NCBI GenBank assembly: GCA_965117065.1
Contig: OZ220751.1
Location: forward strand, 1,789,807 to 1,853,806
From: an uncultured Allomuricauda sp.
GTDB lineage: Bacteria > Bacteroidota > Bacteroidia > Flavobacteriales > Flavobacteriaceae
Direction: 5' to 3'
DNA length: 64,000 bases
Positions 7,166-63,423 of this stretch are shown here, piece after piece. The number at the start of each line of letters is the position of its first letter. The first letter of the stretch is position 1. The notes under the pieces are model-generated. The model did no database searches and was not told the origin of the DNA. It saw only the letters and a list, made by a program, of their open reading frames with translations. The position numbers and the translations under genes are program-made.

Positions 7166-7167
7166 AT

Positions 7168-8316
7168 TTAAGATATGGCTATCAAATTCATGTCTGTTAT
7201 TTCCTTATCCAGAAGGGGAATAATCACTTCAAAAAAATTATCCTCTTCTCGTACCAAAACCTGCTTGTTGGTATAATAGGAATATCGCTTTTTTATATTT
7301 TTTAACCCTAATCGGGTAGTTTCCTCATTCAACTGCCTTTTTCGAAGATTGTTTTTTACCACTAAGGCCTCATCGCCAATTGTTGAAATCTGAACTTCCA
7401 AAGGCTTTTCTTTACTATAATAGTTGTGCTTGAGTGCATTTTCCACCAGCATTTGAACGGATAGGGTTGGAATTAGAAAATATTCTGTTGACACTTGGAT
7501 GTCCGATTTAATCACCACAGCATCCTTATGCCGTACATTCATCATAAACACAAAAGAATCCAAAAACCCCAGTTCTTTTTTTAGCGTTACCAAGTCTTGC
7601 TCGCGATGGTCTAAAATGTAACGGTAACTTGATGCCAATCTGGTCACAAAATCTGAGGCCAAATCGCGATCCTCGTACATCAAAGACGTTAGGGTGTTTA
7701 GACTGTTAAACAAAAAATGAGGGCTTATCTGATTCTTTAATGAAGCATATTTAGAGGCCAGCATTTCCCGTTTCAAATCCTCCATTTGCTTGGTCAATTC
7801 ATCCCTTTGGTTCATGGAAAAGTGGAACATATTAAAAAAAATGACGGTCAACCCAAGCAAAATGGCTCTGAAAAAATCGATTGTAAATTCTATAAGAGGT
7901 GGGTCATCACAAATAATACCCCAACTTTCCCTAAAAACAAACAGTCCCAAATAATACACCAAAGCAGTTGTTGGGGCCAAAATGGCAATATTCTTTCCTA
8001 TAATCACAATGCTACTCTTAAAATAGAGACCTCCTTTTGGCCGTTGTTTTTTCAACAACCAATCATTGGTTTCCCAAGTAAGCATAAACAAAAAAAATGC
8101 GCTGACATAGTAGAATACGCTTGTCGCATTAAAAATGCCTTCAACCATATCATCATCCTGTTCCATTGTAATCTTGACCAGAAAAAAGACCACATTGATG
8201 ACCAGTAATCTGAACAATACTTTATAAATCCCTTTCTTCTTCAACATAAAATCTGCTTGGCGTAAAGATACACATCGACAAGTTTCTCTTTTGTCATAGT
8301 CTACTTCAACTGTCAA
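7168..8316 (-). CDS. Sensor histidine kinase (LytS/YehU-type, multi-TM N-terminus)
   Basis: 382 aa with an N-terminal hydrophobic region and the His_kinase motif SPHFLFNSLNTL. Its stop is 3 nt from the response regulator start. Confidence 0.8.
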   Translation of the reverse strand: MTVEVDYDKRETCRCVSLRQADFMLKKKGIYKVLFRLLVINVVFFLVKITMEQDDDMVEGIFNATSVFYYVSAFFLFMLTWETNDWLLKKQRPKGGLYFKSSIVIIGKNIAILAPTTALVYYLGLFVFRESWGIICDDPPLIEFTIDFFRAILLGLTVIFFNMFHFSMNQRDELTKQMEDLKREMLASKYASLKNQISPHFLFNSLNTLTSLMYEDRDLASDFVTRLASSYRYILDHREQDLVTLKKELGFLDSFVFMMNVRHKDAVVIKSDIQVSTEYFLIPTLSVQMLVENALKHNYYSKEKPLEVQISTIGDEALVVKNNLRKRQLNEETTRLGLKNIKKRYSYYTNKQVLVREEDNFFEVIIPLLDKEITDMNLIAIS

Positions 8317-8492
8317 TATATGATTTGAGTTGTCACTTATGGACTTTGTTCGGATTTAAGCTGCAAATGTGTAAAAGTAGTGCCCTAAATGATGGTGCAT
8401 CAGTTCAATAGACAAAAAAGCAATTCAGCTATTTCATAGCCTAACAAATTCATTATTTCCAAGATTTTCGGGGAAACAAAATATAAACCATT

Positions 8493-10874: not shown

Positions 10875-10895
10875 ACAAGAATCAGCCCATTTTGC

Positions 10896-11441
10896 ATGAA
10901 AAAAATAAGTCTTATTTTACTAGCTTTAGTTATTGTTATAATTACTGTTGTTCTAGTGCGAAATACAGAATCAGGCCCAAATTTTTTAGATGCTCAATTT
11001 TCGGAAATTGTGGATTACATCCCCCAACGTGGTCACAAAAACCAAAAAATTTCGAAAGGGGATGTGGCTTGGCACATAGATCATAGCCTTAAGGCTATAA
11101 ATAGAATCTGCGAATCTCTGGAGCGCTCTGATCCCAATAAATTTAGCTCGAGTTTTAGTTTATCAAGAATTTTTGTGTTTACCTCGGGGATTATTCCCCG
11201 AGGTGTTGCACAATCCCCCAAATCCATAAGGCCGCCCAAGGATATAAATACGGACAGTCTGTACTTGCAGCTTGAAGAAGCCAGGAAAAACCTTAAAAAA
11301 ATAGAAAGCTTGGATGCCAATGCACATTTTAGACATCCCTATTTTAAATTGATCAACAAAGAGCAAACCAAACGATTTTTAAAAATCCATACGGAGCATC
11401 ATTTAAAAATCATAAGGGATATTCTAAAAAACTCAAGTTGA
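10896..11441 (+). CDS. Hypothetical membrane-anchored protein, possibly DinB/YfiT-like (DUF1569-type) metal-binding helical bundle
   Basis: 181 aa with an N-terminal TM helix and His motifs WHIDHSL and HTEHHLK. Confidence 0.3.
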   Translation: MKKISLILLALVIVIITVVLVRNTESGPNFLDAQFSEIVDYIPQRGHKNQKISKGDVAWHIDHSLKAINRICESLERSDPNKFSSSFSLSRIFVFTSGIIPRGVAQSPKSIRPPKDINTDSLYLQLEEARKNLKKIESLDANAHFRHPYFKLINKEQTKRFLKIHTEHHLKIIRDILKNSS

Positions 11442-11509
11442 TTCAAAAATTGAATAACCCCCTTGACATTGTTCCACAAATCCCTACATTGTTTTCAAAT
11501 TAATACTAT

Positions 11510-12622
11510 ATGACTGGAATGTGGTATCAAATAAAAAACATTGAGACAGTTGACTCACCTTCTGTGGTTGTTTATAAGGAACATCTTCAATTTAATATTC
11601 GCGAAATGCTATCCAAAGTTGGGGGCAATTCCCAAAGACTGATGCCTCATGTAAAGACCAATAAAATGCCTAGGGTAATGCAATTGCTATTGGATGCCAG
11701 TATTACCAAATTTAAATCCTCCACCATTTCTGAAGCAGAAATTGCGGCAGAAGCTGGTGCAAAATCCGTTCTCATTGCGCATCAGCTGGTCGGCCCCAAG
11801 GTGGATCGCTTCCTTTCGTTGATTTCTCATTTTCCAAACACTTCCTTCTCCACAATTGTGGACTGCATGGACACTGCGGACTTTTTGAATGAAAAAGCGA
11901 GTTCCCTTGGCATGCAACTGAAAATTTACCTCGACATCAACAATGGCATGAATCGTTCCGGCATTTGTGTTGGAAACGACCTAAGCGAACTTGTAAAATT
12001 TGTCATCGATGCTAAAGCTTTGAATTTTAGTGGATTTCATGTGTACGATGGACATTTGCGCGATACAGATTTCTCCATAAGAAATGAAAAAATAGAAAAT
12101 GGATTTCTTGAGGTATCCCAGCTTTTCGAAACCTTAAAAGAAGTGCATCCCAAAATCGAGATGATTTGTGGTGGCACCCCGTCATTCACCTCCCATTTAC
12201 TGAAGAAGAGCAGAATTACCAGTCCGGGCACTTGTGTGTTCTGGGATTGGGGATATTCCGAAAAACTCCAGGAACAAAACTTCAAATATGCTGCCGTTTT
12301 GGTAACCCGAATTATCTCCAAACCAACTGAAGGAATAGTGACCGTAGACTTAGGACATAAATCCGTAGCGCCGGAAAATCCAATCGACAAAAGAGTAAGA
12401 TTTCTCAATTTGGACAACTACGAACTGCTTTCCCAAAGCGAGGAACACGGCGTCATTAAAGTGGAAAACTGGAAAGAGTTAAAGGTAGGGGACATTCTAT
12501 ATGGCATTCCCTATCATATTTGTCCAACCATAAACCTTCACGATGAAGTCTCTGTTATTGAAAATGGGCAAAAAGTGGATGTCTGGGAAATCACTGCCAG
12601 AAAACGCAGGATTCAGTTCTAA
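11510..12622 (+). CDS. PLP-dependent D-TA/DSD1-family enzyme (alanine-racemase-N-domain fold; D-threonine aldolase/D-serine dehydratase-like)
   Basis: 370 aa with the PHVKTNKMP lysine motif and overall DSD1-family layout. Confidence 0.6.
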   Translation: MTGMWYQIKNIETVDSPSVVVYKEHLQFNIREMLSKVGGNSQRLMPHVKTNKMPRVMQLLLDASITKFKSSTISEAEIAAEAGAKSVLIAHQLVGPKVDRFLSLISHFPNTSFSTIVDCMDTADFLNEKASSLGMQLKIYLDINNGMNRSGICVGNDLSELVKFVIDAKALNFSGFHVYDGHLRDTDFSIRNEKIENGFLEVSQLFETLKEVHPKIEMICGGTPSFTSHLLKKSRITSPGTCVFWDWGYSEKLQEQNFKYAAVLVTRIISKPTEGIVTVDLGHKSVAPENPIDKRVRFLNLDNYELLSQSEEHGVIKVENWKELKVGDILYGIPYHICPTINLHDEVSVIENGQKVDVWEITARKRRIQF

Positions 12623-26220: not shown

Positions 26221-28593
26221 ATGAAGCCCATCAACACTCTTTTCATCGGACTTTTGTTTGTTGCATGCACCACCCAATCACCTCATGCTATTTCCGAAAT
26301 ATTGGAGGACTCTCCTAATATCCAAGGAAAACAAGATTATTTGGATTCGCCTTATGTTACCGCAGGAAATAGAGTGTATATGGTAGGGCATCAAAATGGG
26401 AGCTTTCCTTCCCTCGGCTGGCATATAAAAGGCGAAATGGGAGGTATTTGGAACCACCCCATCAAACTAATGGATGGGTTTGAAGGAGAACTTATTGTGG
26501 AGAATGACACATTTAGCCTGGACAAGGCAACCGAATTCACCAATTACCCCTTTGCTAACAAACACGCCTTTAACTGGACAACCAAGAACATTGATGTGGA
26601 ACGTTGGCAGTTTGTTCCTGATGATTTGCAGGGTATTTTGATCCAATATGTTATCAAAAACAAAGGAAATAGTCCAAAGAAATCCACCTTTGGGTTTGTG
26701 GGGCATACGGATTTAAGACCGACATGGTTGGGAGAACGCACTCAAATGTTCGATGCCCAAGATAAGGACCAATATCAAAACGGAATATGGGTGGTGAAGG
26801 ATGAGTCCAATTCTTGGTTTTCCATTTTTGGTTCAGACCAAAACCCCGTTGAATATCAATCGCTCCCCAAAAAGGTCAATAAAAATGGACAATCCAACAA
26901 GCTTACTTATAATTTTACTTTGGCATCCAATTCAGAATATGTCCTGAGCTTTGTCATAGCGGGATCCTATACTTCAAAAGGAGATGCTCTGGAAACCTTT
27001 AATACCATAAAAAAAGGGCACTTCGGTTTGGCAAAAGAAAAAAAGGAGCGCCTTATCGCTTTGGCTTCCCAGTCCAAATTAACCATTCCCAACAAAGAGC
27101 TGGAAAAAACATTTGAATGGCTCAAATACAATGCCGATTGGTTAAAACGTACAGTTCCCGAAATAGGAACAGGCATTGGAGCTGGTATCCCAGATTATCC
27201 CTGGTGGTTTGGCGTAGATAGTGAATATGCCTTAAAGGGTTACATGGCGGTAGGTCAGGACAAGATTGTGGAACAAACCATAAAGTTGCTGGACAGTGTT
27301 TCCATGGCTGTCAATTCAAATGGTAAAATCCTGCATGAAATGTCTACAAATGGGACTGTATTCAATGATGGAAACATCAATGAAACACCCCAGTTTGCCT
27401 CATTAATCTGGGAAATCTATAAATGGAATGGAGACAAAGAGTTTTTAGAAAAATACTTTCCTACCATACAATTAGGACTAGCATGGCTTTTACGGGAAAA
27501 CGACAGTAACAAAAACCTGTTCCCAGATGGATTTGGAATGATGGAAATTCACGGTCTTGATAGTGAAATGATAGATGTTGCCGCATACACCCAAAGGGCA
27601 TTCTCAGATGCTGCTAAAATGGCTGCCGAGTTGGACATGCTCGAGTTGGCAGAAGTTTATGACAAAAACGCAACCCATTTGAAACAAAAGATTAATGCTG
27701 AGCTTTGGTCTGAAGATTTTGGTTCCTACGCAGATTTTTTGGGGACCGATCAACAGGCCATCCATTTGATCGAGGACGCGATGGTAAGGGCAGACACCTT
27801 GAACAAACCTTGGGCTATTGAAGAATTGGAAGCGACAAAGCAACAAATCCTCAAAAACCCTTCCAGCACACTAAAACCATTTGTTCTGCACCACAATTGG
27901 GTAGTCAATACTCCCATGGAAATGGGAATTGCAGATTCTAGTAAAGCCATAAGGGCTTTGGATACCGCCAAAAAATTCACCAATCCATTCGGAGTTTTTG
28001 TAACCGGTATAGACCGGGACGATTCGGCCGGTAAAGATTTTGGTTCCTTTGAAGGTAGTAAGGTCTTTTCCTATACCGGGGCCGTTATGACCCTCCCAAC
28101 CGGAGTGCAGGCCATTGCAGAAAACAACTACGGTAGACCTAACGAGGCCTTGGACTACCTAGAACGTATGACCCGAACCTTCAGCTATGCCTTTCCAGGA
28201 AGTATGTATGAAGTTTCGCCAGATTATGGGATGATGACCCAGGCTTGGAACATATATGCCTACGCCATTCCTATTGTGCAACAATTTTTTGGGATTCAAC
28301 CCATGGCACACCGCAAAACAGTTATAATTAGGCCCCAAATGCCTAGCAACTGGGAGAAAGGAGCTTCTCTGGAAAATGTGAAGATTGCAGACAATTCGGT
28401 TTCCATTTTTTATGCCAAAGATGCCAATGGCCTACACATTGAAGTGCAACAAACAAATCCTGATTGGATTATCCACTTGGAACTCCCTCAAAACAAATAC
28501 CATGTAATAGAAGGTAACACAACATCCTCTCCAAACCCAAATCGGTCGGTTTTCATTACGTCGGATAAAGTCCTTAGAATACAAGAAGAGTAA
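26221..28593 (+). CDS. Lipoprotein with (alpha/alpha)6-barrel glycoside hydrolase-like domain (glycogen-debranching / GH63-GH15-like)
   Basis: 790 aa with lipobox LFVAC and a six-hairpin glycosidase-like C-terminal half. The family assignment is tentative. Confidence 0.45.
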   Translation: MKPINTLFIGLLFVACTTQSPHAISEILEDSPNIQGKQDYLDSPYVTAGNRVYMVGHQNGSFPSLGWHIKGEMGGIWNHPIKLMDGFEGELIVENDTFSLDKATEFTNYPFANKHAFNWTTKNIDVERWQFVPDDLQGILIQYVIKNKGNSPKKSTFGFVGHTDLRPTWLGERTQMFDAQDKDQYQNGIWVVKDESNSWFSIFGSDQNPVEYQSLPKKVNKNGQSNKLTYNFTLASNSEYVLSFVIAGSYTSKGDALETFNTIKKGHFGLAKEKKERLIALASQSKLTIPNKELEKTFEWLKYNADWLKRTVPEIGTGIGAGIPDYPWWFGVDSEYALKGYMAVGQDKIVEQTIKLLDSVSMAVNSNGKILHEMSTNGTVFNDGNINETPQFASLIWEIYKWNGDKEFLEKYFPTIQLGLAWLLRENDSNKNLFPDGFGMMEIHGLDSEMIDVAAYTQRAFSDAAKMAAELDMLELAEVYDKNATHLKQKINAELWSEDFGSYADFLGTDQQAIHLIEDAMVRADTLNKPWAIEELEATKQQILKNPSSTLKPFVLHHNWVVNTPMEMGIADSSKAIRALDTAKKFTNPFGVFVTGIDRDDSAGKDFGSFEGSKVFSYTGAVMTLPTGVQAIAENNYGRPNEALDYLERMTRTFSYAFPGSMYEVSPDYGMMTQAWNIYAYAIPIVQQFFGIQPMAHRKTVIIRPQMPSNWEKGASLENVKIADNSVSIFYAKDANGLHIEVQQTNPDWIIHLELPQNKYHVIEGNTTSSPNPNRSVFITSDKVLRIQEE

Positions 28594-39521: not shown

Positions 39522-39584
39522 TCCTCAAATTTAGTGTTTACTGTTCTTAAATGTTTAAATTAGTTGCATTCAAACATCAATCAA

Positions 39585-41375
39585 ATGAAGATAATTTTTT
39601 CCCCTTTTGCCCTGTTGCTTTGCTTTATAATGACTGGGCAGACCAATACCTATGAAATAGCCTTCAAAGATGCAGTTCACCATGAGGCTACAGTTTCCGC
39701 CACCTTTACCAATTTGAAGACCGATGTGGTTTCCTTACGGATGAGCAGAACATCTCCCGGGCGTTATGCCCTGCATGAATTTGCTAAAAACGTTTATGAC
39801 TTTAAAGCCATGGACAGCAAAGGAAATGAATTGAAGGTCTTTAGGCCAGATCCATATGTTTGGCAAGTCGCCGGACATGATGGCACTGTACGGATACGTT
39901 ACACCCTTTTTGCAAATCGGGGTGATGGTACCTATTCGCAAATAGATGAAACCCATGCCCATTTGAACATTCCCGCAACCTTTATGTATGTTCCAGCATT
40001 GGCAGACCGCAATATTGAAGTGACTTTTAAGGTAAGGCAAGATCTTGGATGGAAAGTGGCTACTCAGTTACCATTGGTATCCGGCACAACCTATTCAGCT
40101 CCAAATCTGTATTATTTTATGGATAGTCCAACCGAGATCAGCAATTTTACGCTTAGGTCCTTTGAATTAGATGGGCAAACCATACAATTGGCATTGCACC
40201 ACAACGGAACCGAAGCGGAAGCAGATACATATTTTGAAAGAGTTAAAAAGACCGTATTGGCTGAAAAAGAGGTGTATGGGGAACTTCCCAAATTTGATTT
40301 TGACACTTATACTTTTTTAGCCTGTTATATCCCAAATGCATCCGGTGATGGAATGGAGCACAGAAATTCCACCATTCTGACCAGCACACGAAGTTTGGCA
40401 AATGGGGGAATGGAACGAAATATTGGCACTGTCTCACATGAATTCTTTCATGCTTGGAATGTAGAACGCATTAGACCCAAATCTTTAGAGCCTTTTAGTT
40501 TTGAAACTACCAACATGAGCGGTGAATTATGGTTTGCGGAAGGCTTTACCAGTTATTACACCAATTTGATCTTGTGCAGAGCTGGCTTAATTTCACCCAA
40601 AGATTATGTGGAGGGTCTATCTGGTACTTTCAACTACGTTTGGAATTCTCCAGCTCGGCAATTTTTTAATCCAATTGAAATGAGTTACCAGGCGCCTTTT
40701 GTAGATGCCGCCAGATCTGTAGACCCTGTAAATAGGGAAAATACATTTATTTCCTATTATTCCTACGGAAGTGTTTTGGGGCTGGCCTTGGACCTTTCTT
40801 TACGTCAGGAAAGGCTTAACCTAGATGATTTTATGAAAAAGGTGTGGCAGAAATATGGTAAAAAGGAAGTTCCTTACACTGTTAAGGATTTACATGAAGC
40901 ACTAAAAGAATATGCAGGAAACAAGTTTGGAGACACCTTCTTCCATACTTATATCTACCAAAGTGGAATGCCAGATTATAGTGCTCTCTTTGAATCTGTG
41001 GGAGTGAGTCTACAACAAAATGCAGACCAAGCTTATTTTGGTTCATTTGTTTCCATGGATGAAAACGGTGGAACCATTGCAAGAAATCCAGCTATTGGTA
41101 GCCCCGCACATGCATCCCATCTTGCCAAAGGGGATTTGATATTGGGCATCGATGAACTTCCATTTGTTGATGGACAGAATTTTGTTGAATATCTAGGGCA
41201 ATTTAGCATAGGAGATACATTGAATATTAATTATTCCAGATATGGCAAAGACCAGCGCACCACTCTGATTTTGAAGCCTAGCCCTTCCTATTCCATTAAT
41301 CTGCTGGAAGATGTTGACAAAGCACCTTCTGAGACGATGCTGGCTTTACGAAAATCCTGGCTCAAAATTGATTAA
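39585..41375 (+). CDS. M61-family glycyl aminopeptidase with C-terminal PDZ domain
   Basis: The HEFFHAWN (HExxH) zinc motif matches the M61 architecture. The ORF track starts at TTG 39564; the signal-peptide Met (MKIIFSPFALLLCF) is at 39585. Confidence 0.8.
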   Translation: MKIIFSPFALLLCFIMTGQTNTYEIAFKDAVHHEATVSATFTNLKTDVVSLRMSRTSPGRYALHEFAKNVYDFKAMDSKGNELKVFRPDPYVWQVAGHDGTVRIRYTLFANRGDGTYSQIDETHAHLNIPATFMYVPALADRNIEVTFKVRQDLGWKVATQLPLVSGTTYSAPNLYYFMDSPTEISNFTLRSFELDGQTIQLALHHNGTEAEADTYFERVKKTVLAEKEVYGELPKFDFDTYTFLACYIPNASGDGMEHRNSTILTSTRSLANGGMERNIGTVSHEFFHAWNVERIRPKSLEPFSFETTNMSGELWFAEGFTSYYTNLILCRAGLISPKDYVEGLSGTFNYVWNSPARQFFNPIEMSYQAPFVDAARSVDPVNRENTFISYYSYGSVLGLALDLSLRQERLNLDDFMKKVWQKYGKKEVPYTVKDLHEALKEYAGNKFGDTFFHTYIYQSGMPDYSALFESVGVSLQQNADQAYFGSFVSMDENGGTIARNPAIGSPAHASHLAKGDLILGIDELPFVDGQNFVEYLGQFSIGDTLNINYSRYGKDQRTTLILKPSPSYSINLLEDVDKAPSETMLALRKSWLKID

Positions 41376-43927: not shown

Positions 43928-46690
43928 TTAAGGGTTTATGGTCCATGAAATATAATAAATGGAACCTATATTACCTGTACCAACTGCCTGAAAATATTCA
44001 TCCCCCAGTAAGTTGGAGCCACCAGCCTTGAAAACAGATTTGATACTTGGAACGGAATAATTAATTTGTGCATCCAGTACGGTGTATGCTGGTACATCAC
44101 CATCAGCAAAGGAGGCCTCCCAGAAGAAGGTATCGCTCCACCTATAGTTTACATTGAAACCAAAGTTTTCAAAAAGCGCAGTATTCCCAAAAGAAGCTTT
44201 AACCTTATGTTTTGGGGTGTTAAAATTGGTTCTAAAATCAGGGAATCTAGCCTTGTTGAAATCCAATTCCGAATACGTATAGTTAACCCCTAGATCAAAG
44301 TTTCCAAAAATCTTGGTGTCCACACCAACGGTTCCTCCGTATGAATTGATATCCACAGTGGAATTGGTATATGTCTGATAAGCTTGCCTGTCCCCATTTT
44401 GAAGCGCAAGCAATGAAAGTCCACCATCTCCAGCGGTACCGTAAAATGGAACCAATACGGTTACGTTGGCAATAAAGTCTTTATATCTATTGTAATAACC
44501 ACTCAAGTCTACTGTAAACTTGCCAATTTGCCCTCTATATCCAGCTTCAAAAGCTGTGATTTCCTCAGGTTTGATAACAGCTGTATTTACCGCTTCCGGT
44601 GCTCCACTTAACACAGAGCTTAGGGAATACGCATTTTCATAGGCCGCTCGTCCCACAATGTTAACCGTTGACTGTCCAATTAAGTTCTGACCACTTGCGC
44701 TGACATCAAAAGTCCTGATATCCCGATCTAAATTGGATGGTGCAGAACCAACCAAAATGGCAGCCCCGGCATTTAATCCAATAAACAAATCTTGGGTAGT
44801 TGGGTTTCTAAAACCTTGCTGGGCAGAAACCCGGATATTGTGATTCCTATTTTCTCCTGCGGTATATGCCAAAGAAAGTCTTGGAGAAACAAAGCCATCG
44901 AAGAACTCATTTTTATCGTATCTGGCTGAGCCAGTAAACTTAAACCGGTCGTCAAACAATTTCTTTTGTAATTGGACATAGGCTCCATACTCATTGTATT
45001 CTATGGGACCATCCAAATCCGTAAATATGGTACCTCCTGAATTCAGTTCATATTCACGGTATGATCCTCCAACTTGGATATCGGCCCAATCATCAATTAA
45101 ATGCGCCAAATTGTAATTCCCATTCGCATGCCTAAACTTGGTGTTATCAATAAATTTTGCCCCAGTTGTTAGGTCTCCATCATTAATAACGGTATTAAAA
45201 GCACTTTGAAATCCAGGAGTTCCAGGGACAAGTCTCCCAGTATCCGCTGCCTGTCTTGCTGCAGCATGTGCGGCAACGGAGGATTGCTCAGGTGTAAGAC
45301 CTCCTTGCTGGATACCACCTAGGTAGGCAGGAATGTATGTTCCTGCATATTCGGTAAACCATTCGGTATCCCCTTTCCAACTTCTGTTAATATTGATTGC
45401 AGCAAAACGGGTGTCATATGAATCTCCCGAACTCTCCGTAGTGATATAACCCCTAAGGAAAAAGTTCTTATTTCTAAATTCTATTTTGTGCTGTTGTAGC
45501 ACAAAGTTCTTTACTGAATAGCGGTTGGCCCCTTGATAAATGGTATTACCCCTACCTACTCTTCCGTTATAGATAATTTCAAAGTCATTGGCAAAGGGTC
45601 TATAGAAAACAGAAAAATCGGTTTTCACACTTTCAGCATTATAGTTTGCCAAATCCCTTTCGTCATAACCCGTTCTTGAAATTTGCGCAGAACCAACAGT
45701 GCCAGTTGGGAGGCCAGCAGCGGCATCAAAATTCAACAAGGTAGACACCTCATCACCATAAACATTTAGACCATTGTAGTTGGGGTTTGATCTATCTGCT
45801 CCTGGATTACCAAAATCCATGGTATTGTTCGCATGCCAGTCTTCACCACTTAAATAGGAAAGATTGGCTTTAATTGCCACTTTGTCGCTAAAGGCATGGG
45901 CGACTCTTATTCCAAAATCATAATAGTTATTATCCCCGGCAGCGTCTTGGGATGTAATACCGGTTTTGCCGTATGCGCTTATGCCTTGAAAATCGAAAGG
46001 ACTTTTACTGTTCATGAATAAAATACCGTTAAAGGCACCAGCACCGTAAAGAGCAGATGATGCTCCTGGCAGAATCTCAACACTTTGCACTTCCAATTCC
46101 GACATCCCCACCAAGTTCCCCAAAACGAAGTTTAGTCCGGGAGCAGAGTTATCCATCCCATCCACCAACTGCAAAAATCGATTGTTGGCAAAAGTGGCAA
46201 AACCCCTTGTATTAATGGATTGAAAGGTTAAACTGTTGGTATTGATATCCACCCCTTTTAAATTTTGTAACCCTCCATAAAAGGATTCGGCAGTGGTATT
46301 TTTTATTTCCTTTAGACCGAAACGTTCCACAGAAACAGGAGATTCAAAAATACGCTCAGGGGTTCTGGACGCAGATATCACTATTTCATCCAAAAGAGTG
46401 GATGCTTCTGTTAAGGTTATGGAGAGCGTTTGGTTGTTTGAGCTAATTTCTGCAATAAAATCTGCAAATCCTATAGCTGTAAATCGAAGTGTAAAAGGAG
46501 GTTGTTCGGAGGTGTTAAATGTAAAGTTTCCGTCAAAATCGGTAGTAGTACCTTCCGCTTTTCCAACCAAGACCACATTGGCCCCTGGTATCGGCTCATT
46601 TTTTTCATCAACTACTTTCCCCTGAACTGTTGTTTGAGCATAAGATATGGTACTCAATAACAGGAGGGAAAGAACTATAAGTCTTTTCAT
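43928..46690 (-). CDS. TonB-dependent outer-membrane receptor with N-terminal carboxypeptidase-regulatory-like domain
   Basis: 920 aa with signal peptide, CarbopepD_reg (VQGKVVDEKNEPIPGANVVL), plug (ISASRTPE...SPVSVERF) and barrel. Confidence 0.85.
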   Translation of the reverse strand: MKRLIVLSLLLLSTISYAQTTVQGKVVDEKNEPIPGANVVLVGKAEGTTTDFDGNFTFNTSEQPPFTLRFTAIGFADFIAEISSNNQTLSITLTEASTLLDEIVISASRTPERIFESPVSVERFGLKEIKNTTAESFYGGLQNLKGVDINTNSLTFQSINTRGFATFANNRFLQLVDGMDNSAPGLNFVLGNLVGMSELEVQSVEILPGASSALYGAGAFNGILFMNSKSPFDFQGISAYGKTGITSQDAAGDNNYYDFGIRVAHAFSDKVAIKANLSYLSGEDWHANNTMDFGNPGADRSNPNYNGLNVYGDEVSTLLNFDAAAGLPTGTVGSAQISRTGYDERDLANYNAESVKTDFSVFYRPFANDFEIIYNGRVGRGNTIYQGANRYSVKNFVLQQHKIEFRNKNFFLRGYITTESSGDSYDTRFAAININRSWKGDTEWFTEYAGTYIPAYLGGIQQGGLTPEQSSVAAHAAARQAADTGRLVPGTPGFQSAFNTVINDGDLTTGAKFIDNTKFRHANGNYNLAHLIDDWADIQVGGSYREYELNSGGTIFTDLDGPIEYNEYGAYVQLQKKLFDDRFKFTGSARYDKNEFFDGFVSPRLSLAYTAGENRNHNIRVSAQQGFRNPTTQDLFIGLNAGAAILVGSAPSNLDRDIRTFDVSASGQNLIGQSTVNIVGRAAYENAYSLSSVLSGAPEAVNTAVIKPEEITAFEAGYRGQIGKFTVDLSGYYNRYKDFIANVTVLVPFYGTAGDGGLSLLALQNGDRQAYQTYTNSTVDINSYGGTVGVDTKIFGNFDLGVNYTYSELDFNKARFPDFRTNFNTPKHKVKASFGNTALFENFGFNVNYRWSDTFFWEASFADGDVPAYTVLDAQINYSVPSIKSVFKAGGSNLLGDEYFQAVGTGNIGSIYYISWTINP

Positions 46691-56414: not shown

Positions 56415-56476
56415 AACTCAAAGTTGCCCAAAGAACAGGTTAGTTTCTAAATTTTTATATTTAGAAAAACCACATC

Positions 56477-58642
56477 GTGAAAGTCTTCAAACATCCGGTT
56501 CTTCTAATTTTTATTGTTTTCCTTTCATGCAATAAATCAAATACCGAATCATCCTCGGAAAATTATCATACAACTTGGCAGCATTATTTAGGTGACCCAG
56601 AAAGAACCCATTACTCCACACTTGATCAAATTGACAGTTCTAATGTGAAAAACCTTAAGGTTGCTTGGGTCTATAAAAGTGGGGGTTTAGAGGAAGGCAG
56701 GACCACACAGATTCAGACAAATCCTTTAATCATTGACACTGTCCTGTATGGGGTAAATGCGGCTATCGAACTCTTTGCCCTGAGTGCGAAAACAGGTGAG
56801 GAAATTTGGAAGTTTAATCCAACTTCCAAAGACAATTCTGGACTTGGTCTAAATCGTGGTTTAAGTTTCTGGAAATCCAATTCAGAGGAGAAAAGCCGGC
56901 TTTTCTTCTCTTCAGGGTCAAAACTCTACGCGGTAAATGTGGAGAATGGAAAAGTAATTTCATCCTTTGGCGAAAAAGGACATGTGGATTTAAGGGATGG
57001 TCTTGGAAGAAATCCTGAAAAATTATCAGTTGTGGCCAATACTCCCGGAGCTATATATAAGAACCTATTGATTATGGGGACTCGAGTTGGTGAAGGCCCA
57101 GGTTCTTCCCCTGGTCATATAAGAGCTTATAACGTTTTAACAGGTGCAATTGAATGGATTTTTCACACCATCCCGCAGCCCAATGAATTTGGGTACGACA
57201 CTTGGCCCAAAGAAGCCTACCAAACTGTTGGCGGCGCAAATAGCTGGGCTGGAATTGCAATGGATAAAGAAAGGGGTATCGTGTATATTCCGACCGGATC
57301 TGCCGCTTTTGATTGGTATGGCGGTGACCGTACGGGAGAGAATTTATTTGCCAATTCCTTGTTGGCCTTGGATGCCAAGACTGGAAATCGCATATGGCAT
57401 TTTCAAATGGTCCATCATGATATATGGGACAGGGACTTACCTGCACCCCCAAATCTTTTCGATTTTAATCAGAATGGACAAAAAATTCCGGCGGTGGCCC
57501 AAGTAACCAAAAGCGGACATATTTTTATTTTCAATCGACTTACGGGAGAACCTATTTTTCCTATTGAAGAAAGAACATATCCGGTTTCAAAACTTAAGGG
57601 AGAGCACGCCAACACCACTCAGCCGCTTCCCACAAAGCCCGCCCCTTTTGCCCGTCAAATATTGAGAAAGGAAGATTTGTATGATCCCTCCCGACCAGCA
57701 TTTGTAGATGATTTTGTGGATAAGAATCAAAATATAGATCCTCCGACGGTGCTGCAAAAGTTTGAACAAATAACTTCGGAAGGGCAGTTTGTCCCTATTG
57801 ATACGACTGGAGTTATTCTTTATCCCGGTGCAGATGGGGGTGCGGAATGGGGTGGTGCCGCCTTAGACCCAAACAATGGGATAATGTATGTGAATTCCAA
57901 TGAAATGGCATGGATTGTACGAATGACCAATGTCAAAGCGAAAGATGGACAAAATGCAAATCGAAGTGCTTTGGCCACCAAAATCCATTGTGCCAGATGC
58001 CATGGTGGAGACTTACAAGGGCTAGGGGCTATCCCAAATTTGCAACATCTTGAAGATAAATTTTCGGTTGATTCCATATTCAGTATTATTAAAAATGGCA
58101 AGGGCGCCATGCCAGGAATGCCCAATCTCTCAGATCAAGAAATCAATGGAATTGCCAACTTTTTATCCGGAATAGAAGAAGAAATCGACCATAGAGCAGA
58201 ACAAACGGATTTGGACGTTCCCTATGCAGTTGGTGGTTTTGGTCGATTTAAAGACAATAGGGGCTATCCCGTAGTAAAACCTCCCTGGGGAACGTTAAAT
58301 GCTATTGACCTCAATACGGGCAATTATCTATGGAAAATTCCACTAGGGAATGAGGAGGAATTAAACGATCCCGATTATCCTATTTCTGGATTGGAGAATT
58401 ATGGCGGCCCTGTTATCACCGCAGGAGGACTATTGTTTATAGCCGCAACCAAAGATGAAAAAATTCGGGCGTTCAGTATGAAAACAGGCAAAATACTTTG
58501 GGAAGATGACCTGCCAGCAGGTGGCTACGCAACACCTGCCACCTATGAGATTGAAGGCAAGCAATTTTTGGTCATTGCCTGTGGTGGTGGGAAAATGGGT
58601 ACCCCATCTGGTGATGAATACAGAGCTTATGGCCTAGAATAA
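56477..58642 (+). CDS. PQQ-dependent quinoprotein dehydrogenase lipoprotein (glucose/aldose dehydrogenase-like propeller) with an internally inserted cytochrome c domain
   Basis: 721 aa with lipobox FLSC. PQQ-propeller W-motifs occur both before and after a CxxCH heme motif (CARCHGG...MPGMP) at about residue 500. Confidence 0.7.
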   Translation: MKVFKHPVLLIFIVFLSCNKSNTESSSENYHTTWQHYLGDPERTHYSTLDQIDSSNVKNLKVAWVYKSGGLEEGRTTQIQTNPLIIDTVLYGVNAAIELFALSAKTGEEIWKFNPTSKDNSGLGLNRGLSFWKSNSEEKSRLFFSSGSKLYAVNVENGKVISSFGEKGHVDLRDGLGRNPEKLSVVANTPGAIYKNLLIMGTRVGEGPGSSPGHIRAYNVLTGAIEWIFHTIPQPNEFGYDTWPKEAYQTVGGANSWAGIAMDKERGIVYIPTGSAAFDWYGGDRTGENLFANSLLALDAKTGNRIWHFQMVHHDIWDRDLPAPPNLFDFNQNGQKIPAVAQVTKSGHIFIFNRLTGEPIFPIEERTYPVSKLKGEHANTTQPLPTKPAPFARQILRKEDLYDPSRPAFVDDFVDKNQNIDPPTVLQKFEQITSEGQFVPIDTTGVILYPGADGGAEWGGAALDPNNGIMYVNSNEMAWIVRMTNVKAKDGQNANRSALATKIHCARCHGGDLQGLGAIPNLQHLEDKFSVDSIFSIIKNGKGAMPGMPNLSDQEINGIANFLSGIEEEIDHRAEQTDLDVPYAVGGFGRFKDNRGYPVVKPPWGTLNAIDLNTGNYLWKIPLGNEEELNDPDYPISGLENYGGPVITAGGLLFIAATKDEKIRAFSMKTGKILWEDDLPAGGYATPATYEIEGKQFLVIACGGGKMGTPSGDEYRAYGLE

Positions 58643-60583: not shown

Positions 60584-62542
60584 CTAATAGGACAAGCCAT
60601 GACCGAAAGGGTACAATGGATTTTCTGAGTCGTAGGGTACATCTTCCAATTGCTTTTCAACCGCCTCTTGGGAAGAGGGTAGCTCAAATGGTAATTTTGC
60701 CTTCGGATTTACCTCCCCAGAAAGGAGGCCTACCAATGCTTCGTCGCTGGTGCCAAAATCAACGAGCAAAGCATTGGCCTCCGCACTGACCTCTGTTAAT
60801 ATGGCTGGTCGTTCAAGAGTAGCTATTACTATTGAAGGTTTTTCGTTGATCAAATCCAGAATTTCTTTTTTCTCCTCATCAGAATAATACAACCTCCCTT
60901 GGTGAAAAAAGGATTCCAGAAAATAGTCTGTGCGCTCATCAAATGGGGTTTTAATTCTGGCAATTACCACATCGGCCTTATTTGGGTTGCTGACCAATTC
61001 GCCCAGGCTTTCATATGCCGATTTATCCTCAGCTCCATGAACATATAGTTTCACCGTTTTCTTTAATGGCAATAAATCTTCATTTTTAAGTAAAACCGTT
61101 GACTTTTGTTGAGCCAATAATCCCTTTTTTCTAAAATCCATATTTCCTGTGATCACAGTAGCAGCTTCTACATCCACATACGGATTGTCAAATAGACCCA
61201 ACTTAAACTTATCGCGCAGAACGCGCCTTACCGAATTATCGATGCGCTCCTCGGATAGTTGCCCTTCGCTGACCAATTCGGTAATTACCTCAGGGATACT
61301 CTCACCTCCAAACTGATCACATCCAGCATCCAACACTTTTTTCACCCTTTGTTTAATAGTCAAATGTTCAACTCCCCAGGCGCGACCCTCACCCATTTTG
61401 GTGTCGGTAATTATATTCCAATCTGTACAGACCACCCCTTTAAAATTCAAAGAGTCCCTTAGCAATCCCGTAATAATATCCTTATTGAACCCAAAGGCTA
61501 CATCCTCGCTGGTCTGGCCAACTGGAATTCCGTAATAAGGCATTATTTGGGCTGTGTTCGCCTCAAAAGCCCCTTTAATGAATGGTTTTACATGGTAATC
61601 AAAGTTATTACCAGGGTAAGCCTGATCTTTTCCATAAGGAAAATGGGGGTCCTCCCCATCTTTTTGCGGGCCGCCTCCAGAAAAATGCTTAGTCATGCAA
61701 GCAATGCTGTTTGTGCTTAACGAATCTCCTTGAAAACCTAAAACATAGGCCTTGGTCATAATGGCAGAAAGGTCTGCATCTTCGCCAAAAGTACCGTTGG
61801 TTCTTCCCCATCTGGGTTCCGTAGCTAAATCTGCCATTGGATGTAACGCCAACCTGATTCCTACAGCTAGATATTCTTGTCTGGCGATGTCAGCAAACTC
61901 CCTAACCATAAGGGTATCCCTTGAAGCCGCTAACCCCAAGGAACTGGGCCATTGTGAAAAGGCTGGGGTAAACAACGAGGCTCCTGGGTTATTGGAAGTT
62001 CCGTGTCTGGGATCGGTAGCAATTGTAATTGGAATGCCCAATCGGGTACGTTCCGCCATTTTTTGGACACTATTGTTATATTTTGCCATCAAATCAGCAT
62101 CCAAAGAAGCTAAAATATTGAAACTGTTCATCTTCTTTTTGGCAATGAGCTCCGAATTGGATGGGAGCACAAAGGACATCATCACATTAATTGGATTTGT
62201 GGACAACAGTGGAGTCTCCATTGGTTCTCCTTTGGGGGTTGTCCCTATCATAGTTACAAACAAGGTTCCTGTCTTTTCCTCCAAAGTCATCTGATCCAGT
62301 AAATCGTTTACACGATCTTCAATGGGGGCATTTTTGTTTTCATAAACATCCAAATGGCCATTTTTGTTTAAATCTCTATAGGTAATTCCCTGTTCAACCA
62401 AAGTTGGAGCTTCCACACCCAGCAGGGCCATGTTGTCATTCGACTTTTTCTTCTTGGTAAAATAGAGTACCGCCCAACCTACTATCAACAAAGTGATTAG
62501 TGTTAGCAGTACGTACTTTAAAATTTTAAGGAATTTTTTCAT
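60584..62542 (-). CDS. Glycoside hydrolase family 3 protein (beta-glucosidase / beta-xylosidase-like) with N-terminal membrane anchor
   Basis: 652 aa with N-terminal TM, GH3 N-domain (KHF.G motifs) and C-domain. It ends ...FGHGLSY. Confidence 0.85.
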   Translation of the reverse strand: MKKFLKILKYVLLTLITLLIVGWAVLYFTKKKKSNDNMALLGVEAPTLVEQGITYRDLNKNGHLDVYENKNAPIEDRVNDLLDQMTLEEKTGTLFVTMIGTTPKGEPMETPLLSTNPINVMMSFVLPSNSELIAKKKMNSFNILASLDADLMAKYNNSVQKMAERTRLGIPITIATDPRHGTSNNPGASLFTPAFSQWPSSLGLAASRDTLMVREFADIARQEYLAVGIRLALHPMADLATEPRWGRTNGTFGEDADLSAIMTKAYVLGFQGDSLSTNSIACMTKHFSGGGPQKDGEDPHFPYGKDQAYPGNNFDYHVKPFIKGAFEANTAQIMPYYGIPVGQTSEDVAFGFNKDIITGLLRDSLNFKGVVCTDWNIITDTKMGEGRAWGVEHLTIKQRVKKVLDAGCDQFGGESIPEVITELVSEGQLSEERIDNSVRRVLRDKFKLGLFDNPYVDVEAATVITGNMDFRKKGLLAQQKSTVLLKNEDLLPLKKTVKLYVHGAEDKSAYESLGELVSNPNKADVVIARIKTPFDERTDYFLESFFHQGRLYYSDEEKKEILDLINEKPSIVIATLERPAILTEVSAEANALLVDFGTSDEALVGLLSGEVNPKAKLPFELPSSQEAVEKQLEDVPYDSENPLYPFGHGLSY

Positions 62543-62558
62543 CTTATTATATCATTTC

Positions 62559-62605
62559 GACACAATAATACGAAATTATTTTTAATGTGTCCTATTGACA
62601 CAATA
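62559..62605. promoter_or_regulatory. Candidate operator: GACACAATA half-site (62559-62567) plus palindrome TGTGTC-N5-GACACA (62586-62602) in the GH3 / NrtR-like regulator divergent intergenic region
   Basis: Read directly from the sequence: tcGACACAATAatacgaaattatttttaaTGTGTCctattGACACAATAgaa. Confidence 0.45.
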
Positions 62606-62628
62606 GAATTTTTGTATTTTTACAAATA

Positions 62629-63423
62629 ATGACAGATATAGCTTTGCAGATTAAGTCCTTAAAGGACCTTATTCCCAAATATCTTCCCGGCCAGTCTGTG
62701 GATTGCGTCATCTTTGGATATGAGGAAAAGCAACTCAAGGTCCTTTTGTTAAAATGGAAGCAAACGGGTTTTTGGGCGCTTCCCGGCGGATTCATTTTTA
62801 AGGAAGAAAACATGGATGATGCTGCCCAAAGAGTTTTGGAAGAACGTACCAGCCTCACTTCCATTTTTCTAAAACAGTTCCACACTTTTGGAAAACTCCA
62901 ACGGTCAGACCGAAGTCAGCAGGAACATCATAATAAAGTGATGGAACTGCTTAAATCCGAAACCAAGGACAGTCATATGGTCGTTGACTGGTTTAACAAT
63001 CGCTTTGTTACCACGGGATATTTTGCACTGACAGATTTAAGCAAAGCCACTCCCAGACCTGATTTTTTGAGCGAAAAGTGCGAATGGAAAAATGTATCGG
63101 AACTTCCCAAATTAATAATTGATCATGCAGAAATTATTGAAAAAGCCATGCATCAACTTAAGATCCAGTTAAATTACCTTCCCCTCGGTATTTCATTGCT
63201 GCCAAAAAAATTTACCATGAACGAGCTGCAAAAATTGTACGAAGCTATTTTGGGAAGACCGCTGGAACGTAGCAACTTTCAACGGAAAATTTTGAAACTC
63301 GATGTGTTGGTTCGACAAGAAAAATTGATGTCCGGTGCTGCTAACAAGGCTCCGTACCTGTATTCGTTTGACCCGGTCAAATACAATAAGTTGCTAAAAG
63401 AAGGTATTGGCTTTAGATATTAA
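62629..63423 (+). CDS. NrtR-family transcriptional regulator (degenerate Nudix domain + C-terminal winged helix)
   Basis: 264 aa with Nudix-box remnant GGFIFKEENMDDAAQRVLEERTSL and a C-terminal NrtR-type wHTH (...ERSNFQRKILKL...). Divergent from the GH3 gene. Confidence 0.6.
   Translation: MTDIALQIKSLKDLIPKYLPGQSVDCVIFGYEEKQLKVLLLKWKQTGFWALPGGFIFKEENMDDAAQRVLEERTSLTSIFLKQFHTFGKLQRSDRSQQEHHNKVMELLKSETKDSHMVVDWFNNRFVTTGYFALTDLSKATPRPDFLSEKCEWKNVSELPKLIIDHAEIIEKAMHQLKIQLNYLPLGISLLPKKFTMNELQKLYEAILGRPLERSNFQRKILKLDVLVRQEKLMSGAANKAPYLYSFDPVKYNKLLKEGIGFRY

Follow-up and report, generated by a model that had tools for sequence, protein, structure and literature searches.

A cytochrome c domain nested inside the propeller of a predicted PQQ-type dehydrogenase from Allomuricauda

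Quinohaemoproteins are textbook dehydrogenases with an appended cytochrome. Can the cytochrome instead be nested inside the propeller itself, and if so, what type of enzyme carries it and from where would its PQQ come? The question is raised by a single gene in a 64-kb stretch of DNA from an uncultured Allomuricauda sp. (referred to here as the window). One unbroken open reading frame with a GTG start (56477..58642, plus strand) encodes a protein of 721 amino acids. Its sequence predicts a periplasmic sugar/alcohol dehydrogenase of the PQQ type, in which an eight-bladed propeller has a haem c domain spliced into one of its blades. The gene is surrounded by housekeeping genes (radA, xth, and an aldo-keto reductase) and is separated from radA by a gap of 62 nt. 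The octamer TATATTTA (56456..56463, plus strand), 14 nt upstream of the GTG, resembles, as a pattern match, the Bacteroidetes -7 promoter element, TAnnTTTG, so that the dehydrogenase gene may possibly have its own promoter within the gap after radA.

Position of the haem c domain in the propeller

An initial annotation of this DNA had described PQQ-propeller W-motifs on both sides of a single CxxCH segment. We located four such motifs, with ALSAKTGEEIWKF (residues 101-113) and ALDAKTGNRIWHF (297-309) preceding the CARCH sequence at residues 505-509 and AIDLNTGNYLWKI (609-621) and AFSMKTGKILWED (665-677) following it; CARCH is the sole CxxCH among all window open reading frames of at least 100 amino acids. 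Parsing the protein with Pfam gave the same order of domains. The PQQ propeller family PF01011 scored 604.6 bits (cut-off, 26.7); the first 455 of its 595 profile positions aligned with residues 34-494, and further propeller matches were found past the haem at residues 605-710, with PQQ_2 at 605-690.

The boundaries of the insert were revealed by a propeller HMM of 624 positions trained on 23 relatives without the insert. Its match to the query was split in two: HMM positions 9-479 aligned with residues 9-490, and positions 476-622 aligned with residues 575-720. The region after the haem, which would have had to be something other than propeller blades if the cytochrome were strictly C-terminal, thus corresponds to the last ∼147 positions of the HMM (E value, 3.6e-51). 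The insert is ∼85 residues long, and ∼146 propeller residues come after the haem domain. Alignment with relatives lacking the insert and with Escherichia coli Gcd also supported the insertion, which separates strand B from strand C in blade 6 and begins ∼13 residues past the PQQ-contact residue Asn473. An AlphaFold2 model of the query (pTM, 0.82; mean pLDDT, 76) predicted beta-strands to residue 485, helices at residues 496-564, and strands again at residues 583-719, with low confidence in the cytochrome region (pLDDT, 48 to 62).

Taken from the Pfam match, the split HMM match, and the predicted strands, the N-terminal propeller part spans residues 34-490 (56576..57946, plus strand) and contains blades 1 to 5, a long excursion at residues 368-460, strands A and B of blade 6, and a first hairpin arm at residues 479-485. 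The C-terminal part spans residues 575-720 (58199..58636, plus strand), as indicated by the second HMM segment, PQQ_2, and the predicted strands, and contains the second hairpin arm (583-593), strands C and D of blade 6 (606-622), and blade 7 (646-678). Blade 8 consists of three strands within residues 688-719, and the N-terminal strand 61-67 completes it; the blade numbering is our interpretation of the AlphaFold2 strands and the W-motifs. In a Foldseek search, PQQ alcohol and methanol dehydrogenases were the top structural matches (PedH, 6zcw; E value, 1e-33; TM score, 0.77 when normalised to PedH), and in alignments with PDB sequences, query residues 643-710 paired with residues 479-546 of ADH-IIG. 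The cytochrome c is nested inside the eight-bladed propeller and is not a C-terminal add-on.

The insert with its linkers (residues 491-574; 57947..58198, plus strand) was assigned to the class I cytochromes c by several matches; its helical core at residues 496-564 leads into a linker that varies in length and was modelled with low confidence. Cytochrome_CBB3 (PF13442) scored 46.7 bits on residues 502-563 (cut-off, 27; E value, 4e-12), and Cytochrom_C (PF00034) scored 26.8 on residues 500-564 (gathering score, 21.3). The NCBIfam matches were to cytochrome c550/c551 (E values, 7e-15 and 1.6e-14), and those in the PDB were to cytochromes c-553 and c6. The haem c attachment motif C505-A-R-C508-H509 (57989..58003, plus strand) and the M545-P546 pair (58109..58114, plus strand), which lies within MPGMPNLS at residues 545-552, were both invariant among 23 diverse representatives sharing 24 to 47% identity with the query over the insertion region. 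M545 was also invariant among close homologues, and the haem motif was found at the same site in all 80 related loci that we inspected. This occurrence at one site, together with the invariance across the 23 representatives, excludes a chance origin of the CxxCH. The conservation of both motifs at such low identity and in every locus indicates that haem binding is under strong selection, and by analogy with class I cytochrome c families, Met545 is probably the distal (sixth) axial ligand of the haem.

Export, active site, and PQQ supply

Is the protein exported, as a periplasmic dehydrogenase would need to be? Its predicted signal peptide with lipobox, (M/V)KVFKHPVLLIFIVFLS-C18 (56477..56530, plus strand), ends in ...IVFLS-C18, with Phe at position -3 in place of the usual Leu. 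The FLSC motif that had been pointed out in the initial annotation is present at residues 15-18, and Cys18 was invariant in 37 close homologues; the dehydrogenase is predicted to be a lipoprotein. Many Bacteroidota orthologues likewise have a signal ending in (S/A/G)C, and those from Verrucomicrobia have ordinary signal peptides. A lipoprotein signal would also be expected of BamB, the outer membrane assembly factor after which the NCBI names several orthologues ("outer membrane protein assembly factor BamB family protein"), and Foldseek did return BamB structures at E values of ∼1e-15. However, those matches were partial (TMq, 0.36 to 0.40), the query scored only 41.4 against 285.2 for TIGR03300 and 34.4 against 423 for NF008351, and BamB has neither haem nor PQQ catalytic residues, in contrast to the 604.6 bits of the PQQ propeller match. 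The Pfam and equivalog scores effectively refute a BamB identity, to which we assign a negligible probability.

To which type of PQQ propeller does the protein belong? The best NCBIfam match was TIGR03074, the glucose/quinate/shikimate family, with 473.9 bits (residues 22-501 on profile positions 145-627), which is below the curated family cut-off of 832.65. The methanol/ethanol family TIGR03075 scored 231.7 bits (cut-off, 480.05). The only cysteines in the query are residues 18, 505, 508, and 702; none are adjacent, and the vicinal Cys-Cys pair of methanol and alcohol dehydrogenases is therefore absent. By these profile comparisons, the propeller appears to be of the membrane glucose/quinate dehydrogenase type and most like that of E. 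coli Gcd.

The alternative is an alcohol or aldehyde dehydrogenase that functions like the type II quinohaemoprotein alcohol dehydrogenases (ADH-IIB and ADH-IIG of Pseudomonas putida HK5 and qhEDH of Comamonas testosteroni; PDB entries 1kv9, 1yiq, and 1kb0) and differs from them in the position of the cytochrome alone. Like the query, these enzymes join an eight-bladed PQQ propeller and a single CxxCH haem domain in one chain and, presumably, pass electrons from PQQ through haem c to an external acceptor. They are its closest solved structures by both sequence and fold. ADH-IIG, ADH-IIB, and PedH headed the solved-structure matches, a comparison biased by the fact that no Gcd-type enzyme was among those structures. 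In contrast to the query, the type II enzymes are soluble and carry the vicinal Cys-Cys pair; their clade is that of the alcohol dehydrogenases (TIGR03075), for which the query scored less than half of what it scored for the glucose/quinate family. Their cytochrome follows a complete propeller, whereas that of the query is nested in blade 6, so that query haem region 503-553 pairs with residues 604-652 of 1yiq, out of propeller order. The contrast with the C-terminal cytochrome of the classical quinohaemoproteins, which had been drawn from the sequence at the outset, therefore holds, with the amendment that the propeller is of the Gcd type and not of their alcohol dehydrogenase type.

Alignment with Gcd placed query residues W257, D318, D320, K345, N473, and D660 at the positions of Gcd W404, D466, D468, K493, N607, and D730, and all six were invariant or nearly so within the family. 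The roles of the Gcd residues in catalysis and PQQ contact are those that we take to follow from the mutagenesis literature. On the plus strand, D318-R-D320 is encoded at 57428..57436; D318, which was invariant, corresponds to the catalytic base Asp466 of Gcd, and D320 falls at the second Asp of the "lanthanide signature." The other active-site equivalents are encoded at 57245-57247 (W257), 57509-57511 (K345), 57893-57895 (N473, the PQQ contact located where strand B of blade 6 ends), 58454-58456 (D660), and 57092-57094 (E206, a probable metal ligand). The active-site residues other than Asn473 likewise lie in D-A and B-C loops. Because of this and because the insertion comes just past Asn473, we infer that the haem domain emerges from the active-site face of the propeller.

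The N-terminal parts of the two proteins differ. Gcd has five N-terminal transmembrane helices, delivers its electrons to ubiquinone, and contains no haem. Profile positions 1-144 of TIGR03074, which represent the N-terminal multihelix membrane domain, had no match in the query, where the predicted 18-residue lipoprotein signal replaces ∼140 to 150 residues of Gcd. At the insertion site, the haem c domain of the query stands opposite a Gcd loop of ∼30 residues. Several Gcd residues are also changed in the query (H262 to L123, N355 to G207, T424 to A277, and H775 to G705), including both histidines, and the substrate and the metal may for this reason differ from those of Gcd. A 2026 preprint counts the D-x-D motif of every PQQ-8-blade GDH gene as Ln-binding. 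We dropped the motif as a discriminator of lanthanide dependence, since E. coli Gcd itself has D466-M-D468.

We then consider the cofactor. A scan of all PqqB-, PqqC-, and PqqE-sized open reading frames detected no pqq genes in the window, in agreement with the initial annotation; the sole radical-SAM open reading frame of the window is BioB-like. We also did not find the PQQ importer PqqU in the window, where the TonB-dependent receptors encoded at 8493-10874 and 43928-46690 belong to the SusC/CarboxypepD_reg types and 26221-28593 had no match. PqqU has been reported in 206 Bacteroidota, 0 of which have PQQ biosynthesis genes, and the listed carriers include Muricauda/Allomuricauda pacifica; Gcd, too, runs on imported PQQ (PMC12124388). 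The initial annotation had left a choice between scavenged PQQ and an alternative cofactor. The first is already established (PMC12124388), and the second is disfavoured by the conserved PQQ-site residues. Since import through PqqU is documented in Bacteroidota, including Muricauda, scavenged PQQ should, by analogy, suffice, with no need for an alternative cofactor.

The lack of pqq genes in the window and of PQQ biosynthesis in the published PqqU-encoding Bacteroidota could also be expected of an "empty" propeller, akin to the acido-empty-quinoproteins, in which haem c would be the sole redox centre and the protein would serve as a membrane-anchored cytochrome c, a haem sensor, or a scaffold. 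A partial match to TIGR04528 (acido-empty-quinoprotein group A; 225.8 bits) and the altered Gcd ligand positions would fit such a protein as well. The TIGR04528 score, however, is far under the cut-off of 650, the invariance or near invariance of D318, W257, K345, N473, and D660 would be unexpected for an unused pocket, and PQQ import by PqqU has been documented within this genus complex. We consider an empty propeller improbable and favour a PQQ-binding enzyme.

Distribution and genomic context of the family

A genome scan that used the closer insertion-region alignment as its query found the nested-cytochrome family in at least 599 species genomes from six or more phyla. Matches in a profile search with the insertion region were mostly short metagenomic fragments and were used for taxon names. 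Among the 150 closest representatives of 50%-identity clusters, about half carried the insert. These data bear on whether the insertion could be an artefact of misassembly, a frameshift, or gene fusion in the source genome, a reading that had nothing but the unusual topology in its favour. The uninterrupted open reading frame, the same architecture in all of these genomes and representatives, and the haem motif at its site in 80 of 80 loci are at odds with it, and the genome spread and the 80 loci refute it, leaving it next to no probability. The topology recognised in the initial annotation stands, but as the property of a large multiphylum family and not as a curiosity of one genome. Many carriers of the family are polysaccharide degraders unable to make PQQ. 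Among open-access papers and bioRxiv preprints, we came across none that describes or characterises a cytochrome nested in a PQQ propeller, and we regard the layout, which recurs in hundreds of bacterial species, as apparently undescribed. Database names of the members are generic or wrong ("quinoprotein glucose dehydrogenase," "BamB family protein," and "c-type cytochrome").

Relatives without the insert may have terminal haem domains instead: P0174 and P0177 have five C-terminal CxxCH motifs each; P0218, P0241, and P0258 have one each; and P0163 and P0197 have an N-terminal CxxCH. These relatives combine a Gcd-like soluble propeller (35 to 47% identity to the query) with c-type haem, as the query does, and differ from it in the terminal position of the haem domains and in a loop of only 5 to 25 residues at the insertion site. 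Their domain arrangements suggest that c-type haem has been coupled repeatedly to the Gcd-like propeller in this clade. For the origin of the insert itself, we built a neighbour-joining tree from propeller-only columns. The 52 insert-bearing representatives fell under a node of 63 tips, 11 of them without the insert, and Fitch parsimony required 11 changes (10 to 15 over 30 bootstrap resamples). The tree is compatible with one gain followed by losses of the insert, a history that so crude a method is not sufficient to claim.

Does the genomic context point to a substrate? The nested-cytochrome module occurs fused to 3-keto-disaccharide hydrolase, CBM_4_9, ThuA, xylose-isomerase-like TIM barrel, and sulfatase domains. 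Recurrent gene neighbours encode TAT GFO/IDH/MocA oxidoreductases, sulfatases, 3-keto-disaccharide hydrolases, and monohaem cytochrome c, and in Rhodothermales, a gluconolactonase gene lies directly upstream of the dehydrogenase gene. Lactonase neighbours were present in 2 of the 80 loci and monohaem cytochromes in 4. Clustering of the neighbours over the 80 loci yielded no conserved operon partner, none being kept in more than 12, and the neighbourhood may hint at a function. Given this and the housekeeping surroundings of the query, it is the fusions and a minority of contexts that point to carbohydrate oxidation as the likely role. The same carbohydrate-related fusions and neighbours weigh against the alcohol or aldehyde dehydrogenase introduced above, for which the context in the window is uninformative; we consider that function unlikely and retain the Gcd-type assignment.

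Proposed electron route and its meaning

We propose, with a probability of roughly 70%, that the protein is a lipid-anchored periplasmic quinohaemoprotein dehydrogenase that combines a Gcd-type PQQ propeller with a nested haem c relay and uses imported PQQ. The propeller would oxidise its substrate, probably a sugar or glycoside, at a hydroxyl or hemiacetal group; Asp318 would serve as the base, and Glu206, Asp318, and Asp320 would bind a metal ion. The resulting PQQH2 would give its two electrons singly to the His/Met-ligated haem c of the nested ∼85-residue domain, which interrupts the B-C connection in blade 6 and would lie on the active-site face. From this haem they would reach either a terminal oxidase or the respiratory pool of cytochrome c. 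The nested haem would thus stand in for the N-terminal transmembrane ubiquinone-reducing domain of Gcd, and PQQ would be imported rather than synthesised. A functional analogy is offered by CcPDH (CAZy AA12; PMC4332668), which also unites a PQQ sugar dehydrogenase and a cytochrome in one chain and has a CBM fusion. It is a secreted fungal enzyme with a six-bladed propeller and an N-terminally appended b-type cytochrome and has no sequence relationship to the eight-bladed family.

A more far-reaching possibility is that an ancient single splice of cytochrome c into blade 6 gave rise to a distinct, undescribed class of quinohaemoproteins. In Bacteroidota, Verrucomicrobiota, Acidobacteriota, and allies, this class would supply the principal dehydrogenase of the Gcd type. 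The splice would have replaced the ubiquinone-reducing membrane domain and rewired periplasmic sugar/glycoside oxidation to the cytochrome c/terminal oxidase branch, and the enzymes would use solely scavenged PQQ, possibly with a lanthanide (D318-x-D320). We hold this reading tentatively, at slightly less than even odds. If it is true, such genes would be miscounted as "gcd" in environmental surveys of phosphate solubilisation. Because the database names are inconsistent, metagenomic gcd counts may in any case include an enzyme with different wiring.

A cytochrome nested in a propeller blade is a structural solution different from the appended one, with the haem probably fixed beside the active-site face. 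Groups working on biosensors pursue catalysts capable of direct electron transfer by artificial fusion (PMC8348568), and a Gcd-like enzyme in which haem c is built in by nature would be the type of catalyst that they aim for. With its spread over so many species genomes and phyla, the family probably represents a substantial uncharacterised route by which periplasmic substrate oxidation feeds electrons to respiration, with PQQ as a shared community resource.

A cytochrome c domain inside the PQQ propeller

The nested quinohaemoprotein, a 721-aa protein with a GTG start, is encoded where the initial annotation had placed it (56477..58642, + strand), and a homologue search recovered P0001, a protein 100% identical to the product of 56477-58639. 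The only haem c attachment motif of the protein is CARCH at residues 505-509, MPGMPNLS occupies residues 545-552, and the remaining cysteines are Cys18 and Cys702. No other ORF of 100 aa or more in the 64-kb window contains a CxxCH. The putative signal peptide ends in a predicted lipobox (FLS-C18) whose cysteine is unchanged across 37 close homologues. Pfam matched the PQQ propeller (PF01011, 604.6 bits; best stretch residues 34-494, profile positions 1-455 of 595), Cytochrome_CBB3 (residues 502-563; E 4e-12, exceeding the gathering score), Cytochrom_C (residues 500-564), and additional propeller segments past the haem (residues 605-710). Independently of Pfam, NCBIfam returned cytochrome c550/c551-like matches at residues 491-564 (E ~1e-14). 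The haem is flanked by W-motifs before and after; the claim of a single CxxCH with propeller motifs on both sides was thus borne out by motif positions and domain parsing.

Can the propeller be complete without the cytochrome? An HMM of 624 positions was derived from 23 close relatives that lack a haem motif and have a short loop at the site. The query protein matched this model in two pieces: residues 9-490 to positions 9-479 (E 1e-182), and residues 575-720 to positions 476-622 (E 4e-51), which identifies the post-haem region as propeller, a point the initial annotation had singled out for checking. Because the two pieces are contiguous in the model, ~85 residues are spliced into an otherwise complete propeller. 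In the multiple alignment, "...MAWIVRM..." joins directly to "...PY..GF.RF.D" in insert-less relatives, and Escherichia coli Gcd (the membrane glucose dehydrogenase) has a loop of ~30 residues at the site. An AlphaFold2 model (37-sequence alignment; pTM 0.82, mean pLDDT 76) predicted β-strands as far as residue 485, then five helices (496-564), then β-strands once more (583-719). The cytochrome domain lies inside the propeller, as the split HMM match directly reveals; with the alignment and predicted strands in agreement, the earlier view of a nested rather than appended cytochrome holds.

We place the insertion in blade 6, a numbering that is interpretive and read from strands and W-motifs. 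Strands A (residues 461-464) and B (residues 469-474) would precede the insertion, and strands C and D (residues 606-622), which carry the W-motif AIDLNTGNYLWKI, would follow it. The hairpin 479-485/583-593 would bear the cytochrome at its tip, and blades 7 and 8 would come after the insertion, with the N-terminal strand 61-67 closing blade 8.

Active site, PQQ supply and metal

The best curated NCBIfam family was TIGR03074 (membrane-bound glucose/quinate/shikimate dehydrogenases; 473.9 bits); TIGR03075 (methanol/ethanol) scored 231.7, and both are under their cut-offs. The TIGR03074 match begins at profile position 145, and therefore the N-terminal membrane domain is absent; the putative signal peptide with its lipobox stands in its place. 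With no membrane domain and a score below the cut-off, the query is not a member of TIGR03074.

Alignment with the E. coli gcd sequence mapped the residues studied by mutagenesis of Gcd. Six of these, Trp404, Asp466, Asp468, Lys493, Asn607 and Asp730, correspond to W257, D318, D320, K345, N473 and D660 of the query, six positions that vary little or not at all in the nested family. We take their roles in Gcd to be PQQ stacking (Trp404), catalytic base (Asp466), second aspartate of the D-x-D pair (Asp468), PQQ contact (Asn607) and active site (Lys493 and Asp730). At four further Gcd positions the residue differs (His262 is L123 in the query, Asn355 is G207, Thr424 is A277 and His775 is G705); therefore the query does not share Gcd's substrate pocket or its path to quinone. 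A check of all cysteines found no vicinal Cys-Cys pair of methanol/alcohol dehydrogenases. The closest solved structures were PQQ alcohol/methanol dehydrogenases (Foldseek E ~1e-33; TM 0.77 to PedH), with no Gcd-type structure among the matches from sequence search or Foldseek. Judged by its sequence, the propeller is of the Gcd type, which amends the initial annotation.

A scan of all window ORFs of suitable size found no pqq genes, as previously claimed, and the sole radical-SAM protein is BioB-like; no PqqU-like receptor was found in the window either. The initial annotation had proposed scavenged PQQ or an alternative cofactor. Scavenging was already documented: PqqU, a widespread TonB-dependent importer, occurs in 206 Bacteroidota, of which 0/206 have PQQ biosynthesis genes, with Muricauda/Allomuricauda pacifica among the many Flavobacteriaceae named in the supplement (PMC12124388). 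Scavenged PQQ is thus an established and sufficient explanation, and conservation in the PQQ pocket speaks against a different cofactor.

A 2026 preprint reports a "lanthanide signature" in every eight-bladed GDH-type gene of its survey, and D318-x-D320 fits it. This pair does not settle the metal, because E. coli Gcd (locus L001, NC_000913.3 138835-141225) has the same two-aspartate pattern, D466-M-D468. Gcd is reconstituted with Ca2+ or Mg2+, and therefore the signature may not predict the metal in the glucose dehydrogenase clade.

Distribution and naming of the nested family

When 1.84 billion cluster representatives were searched exhaustively, 2510 proteins matched at E <= 1e-30. In about half of the best 150, an insert of 90-150 residues with one CxxCH occupies exactly the query's site, and about half have a loop of merely 5-40 residues there; a few of the insert-less ones have haem at a terminus instead, as an N-terminal motif, a monohaem domain at the C terminus, or five motifs at the C terminus. 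No variation occurs in the CxxCH, two glycines or an M-P pair among 23 diverse insert regions whose identity to the query is 24-47%. Full-length relatives are encoded in at least 599 species in a scan of species-representative genomes. Each of the best 80 loci (80/80) has exactly one CxxCH, placed as in the query. These loci belong to Bacteroidota (Flavobacteriales, Cytophagales, Chitinophagales, Sphingobacteriales, Rhodothermales, Balneolales) and to Verrucomicrobiota, Acidobacteriota, Haliangiales, Nitrospirales and Marinisomatota; Flagellimonas/Allomuricauda proteins are ~80% identical to the window's. The nested family is widespread, a second amendment to the initial annotation.

In a neighbour-joining tree of propeller-only columns, 52 insert-bearing representatives fell under one 63-tip node and 55 insert-less ones outside it. 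This crude tree would fit one main gain with some losses and is not decisive. Several relatives depart from the usual form. P0127 (794 aa) has two CxxCH in its insert at the query's site (CSSCH at 497, CVECH at 577), which looks like a tandem duplication giving a dihaem insert. Inserts of 79-128 residues without CxxCH, again at the query's site (P0183, P0185, P0237, P0254, P0262, P0267), may represent haem domains that have degenerated or another kind of module. P0174 and P0177 are Gcd-like propellers that lack the insert and bear five CxxCH at the C terminus (cytochrome c7/c3-like), a multihaem version of propeller-haem coupling.

No NCBIfam model matched by the query is specific for the nested family, and its members bear generic or inconsistent labels in the source records ("PQQ-binding-like beta-propeller repeat protein", "pyrroloquinoline quinone-dependent dehydrogenase", "quinoprotein glucose dehydrogenase", "BamB family protein", "c-type cytochrome"). 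NCBI calls some orthologues (e.g., P0005, P0008, P0093) "outer membrane protein assembly factor BamB family protein". We rejected a BamB identity for the query (41 bits versus a cut-off of 285) and likewise an "empty" quinoprotein identity (226 versus 650); with BamB models so far below their cut-offs, the naming is likely a systematic misannotation. JGI names orthologues "quinoprotein glucose dehydrogenase", and therefore gcd-based environmental surveys probably count them.

Genomic context and proposed mechanism

The gene stands alone: it follows radA after 62 nt and converges on an aldo-keto reductase gene, with housekeeping genes around it and a GH3 glycosidase 2 kb off. That glycosidase (-) and a Nudix/NrtR-type regulator (+), which has an AraR-like winged-helix domain, occupy 60584-63423 in divergent orientation; the two may form a small sugar-responsive unit, with no link to the quinohaemoprotein gene established. 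Elsewhere in the window, a 790-aa ORF (26221-28593, +) had no NCBIfam match at E <= 1e-10 and no solved-structure match at E <= 1e-5, and a 603-aa ORF (39564-41375, +) had no NCBIfam match at E <= 1e-10.

Neighbour clustering of the best 80 loci revealed no neighbour conserved in more than 12. The recurrent ones were TAT-signal GFO/IDH/MocA oxidoreductases (10/80), sulfatases (6/80), 3-keto-disaccharide hydrolases (6/80) and a small monohaem cytochrome c (4/80). In longer relatives the nested module is fused to a 3-keto-disaccharide hydrolase, CBM_4_9, ThuA or sulfatase, or to a xylose-isomerase-like TIM barrel with Laminin_G_3. Together, neighbours and fusions point to sugar or glycoside oxidation; a carbohydrate substrate is a tentative assignment, at slightly below even odds.

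Two arrangements are of note. A Rhodothermales MAG (L012:4725-12133) has an operon-like run of co-directional genes that opens with the gene for a 1163-aa protein (domains: 3-keto-disaccharide hydrolase, ThuA, six-bladed PQQ glucose/sorbosone dehydrogenase, PKD), continues with a 167-aa monohaem cytochrome c and an SMP-30/gluconolactonase, and has the nested quinohaemoprotein directly after; locus L014 is arranged alike. In an uncultured Eudoraea sp. (Flavobacteriaceae; L007:6891-12169), two quinohaemoproteins of differing topology lie nearly adjacent on one strand: a classical one with C-terminal Cytochrome_CBB3 (6891-9029, 712 aa) and a nested one (9986-12169, 727 aa), separated by a DUF5996 gene and surrounded by galactokinase, SASA carbohydrate esterase, GH127 and sulfatase genes.

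The insertion begins ~13 residues past the PQQ-contact Asn473. Because the insertion, like other active-site residues, is in a B-C or D-A loop, the haem domain is expected on the active-site face of the modelled propeller; the C-terminal cytochrome of type II alcohol dehydrogenases also sits on that face. The insert's C-terminal linker has low model confidence and variable length, which is consistent with a tether. In the proposed mechanism, substrate would reduce PQQ with Asp318 as base, the electrons of PQQH2 would pass singly to the His509/Met545 haem, and the haem would then reduce a respiratory-chain cytochrome c or terminal oxidase. We put at about 0.7 the probability that the query works as a PQQ/haem c dehydrogenase and transfers electrons intramolecularly.

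The query would resemble type II quinohaemoprotein dehydrogenases in its working, yet it is not one of them: its cytochrome is internal, its propeller is Gcd-like, and it has no Cys-Cys pair. In searches of the open-access literature and of bioRxiv, no account turned up of a PQQ propeller with a cytochrome nested in it; the bacterial PQQ-cytochrome fusions in papers mentioning them are six-bladed enzymes. The components and logic are familiar, and what those searched sources leave undescribed is the nested topology and the large uncharacterised family that has it, of which the Allomuricauda gene is an ordinary member.
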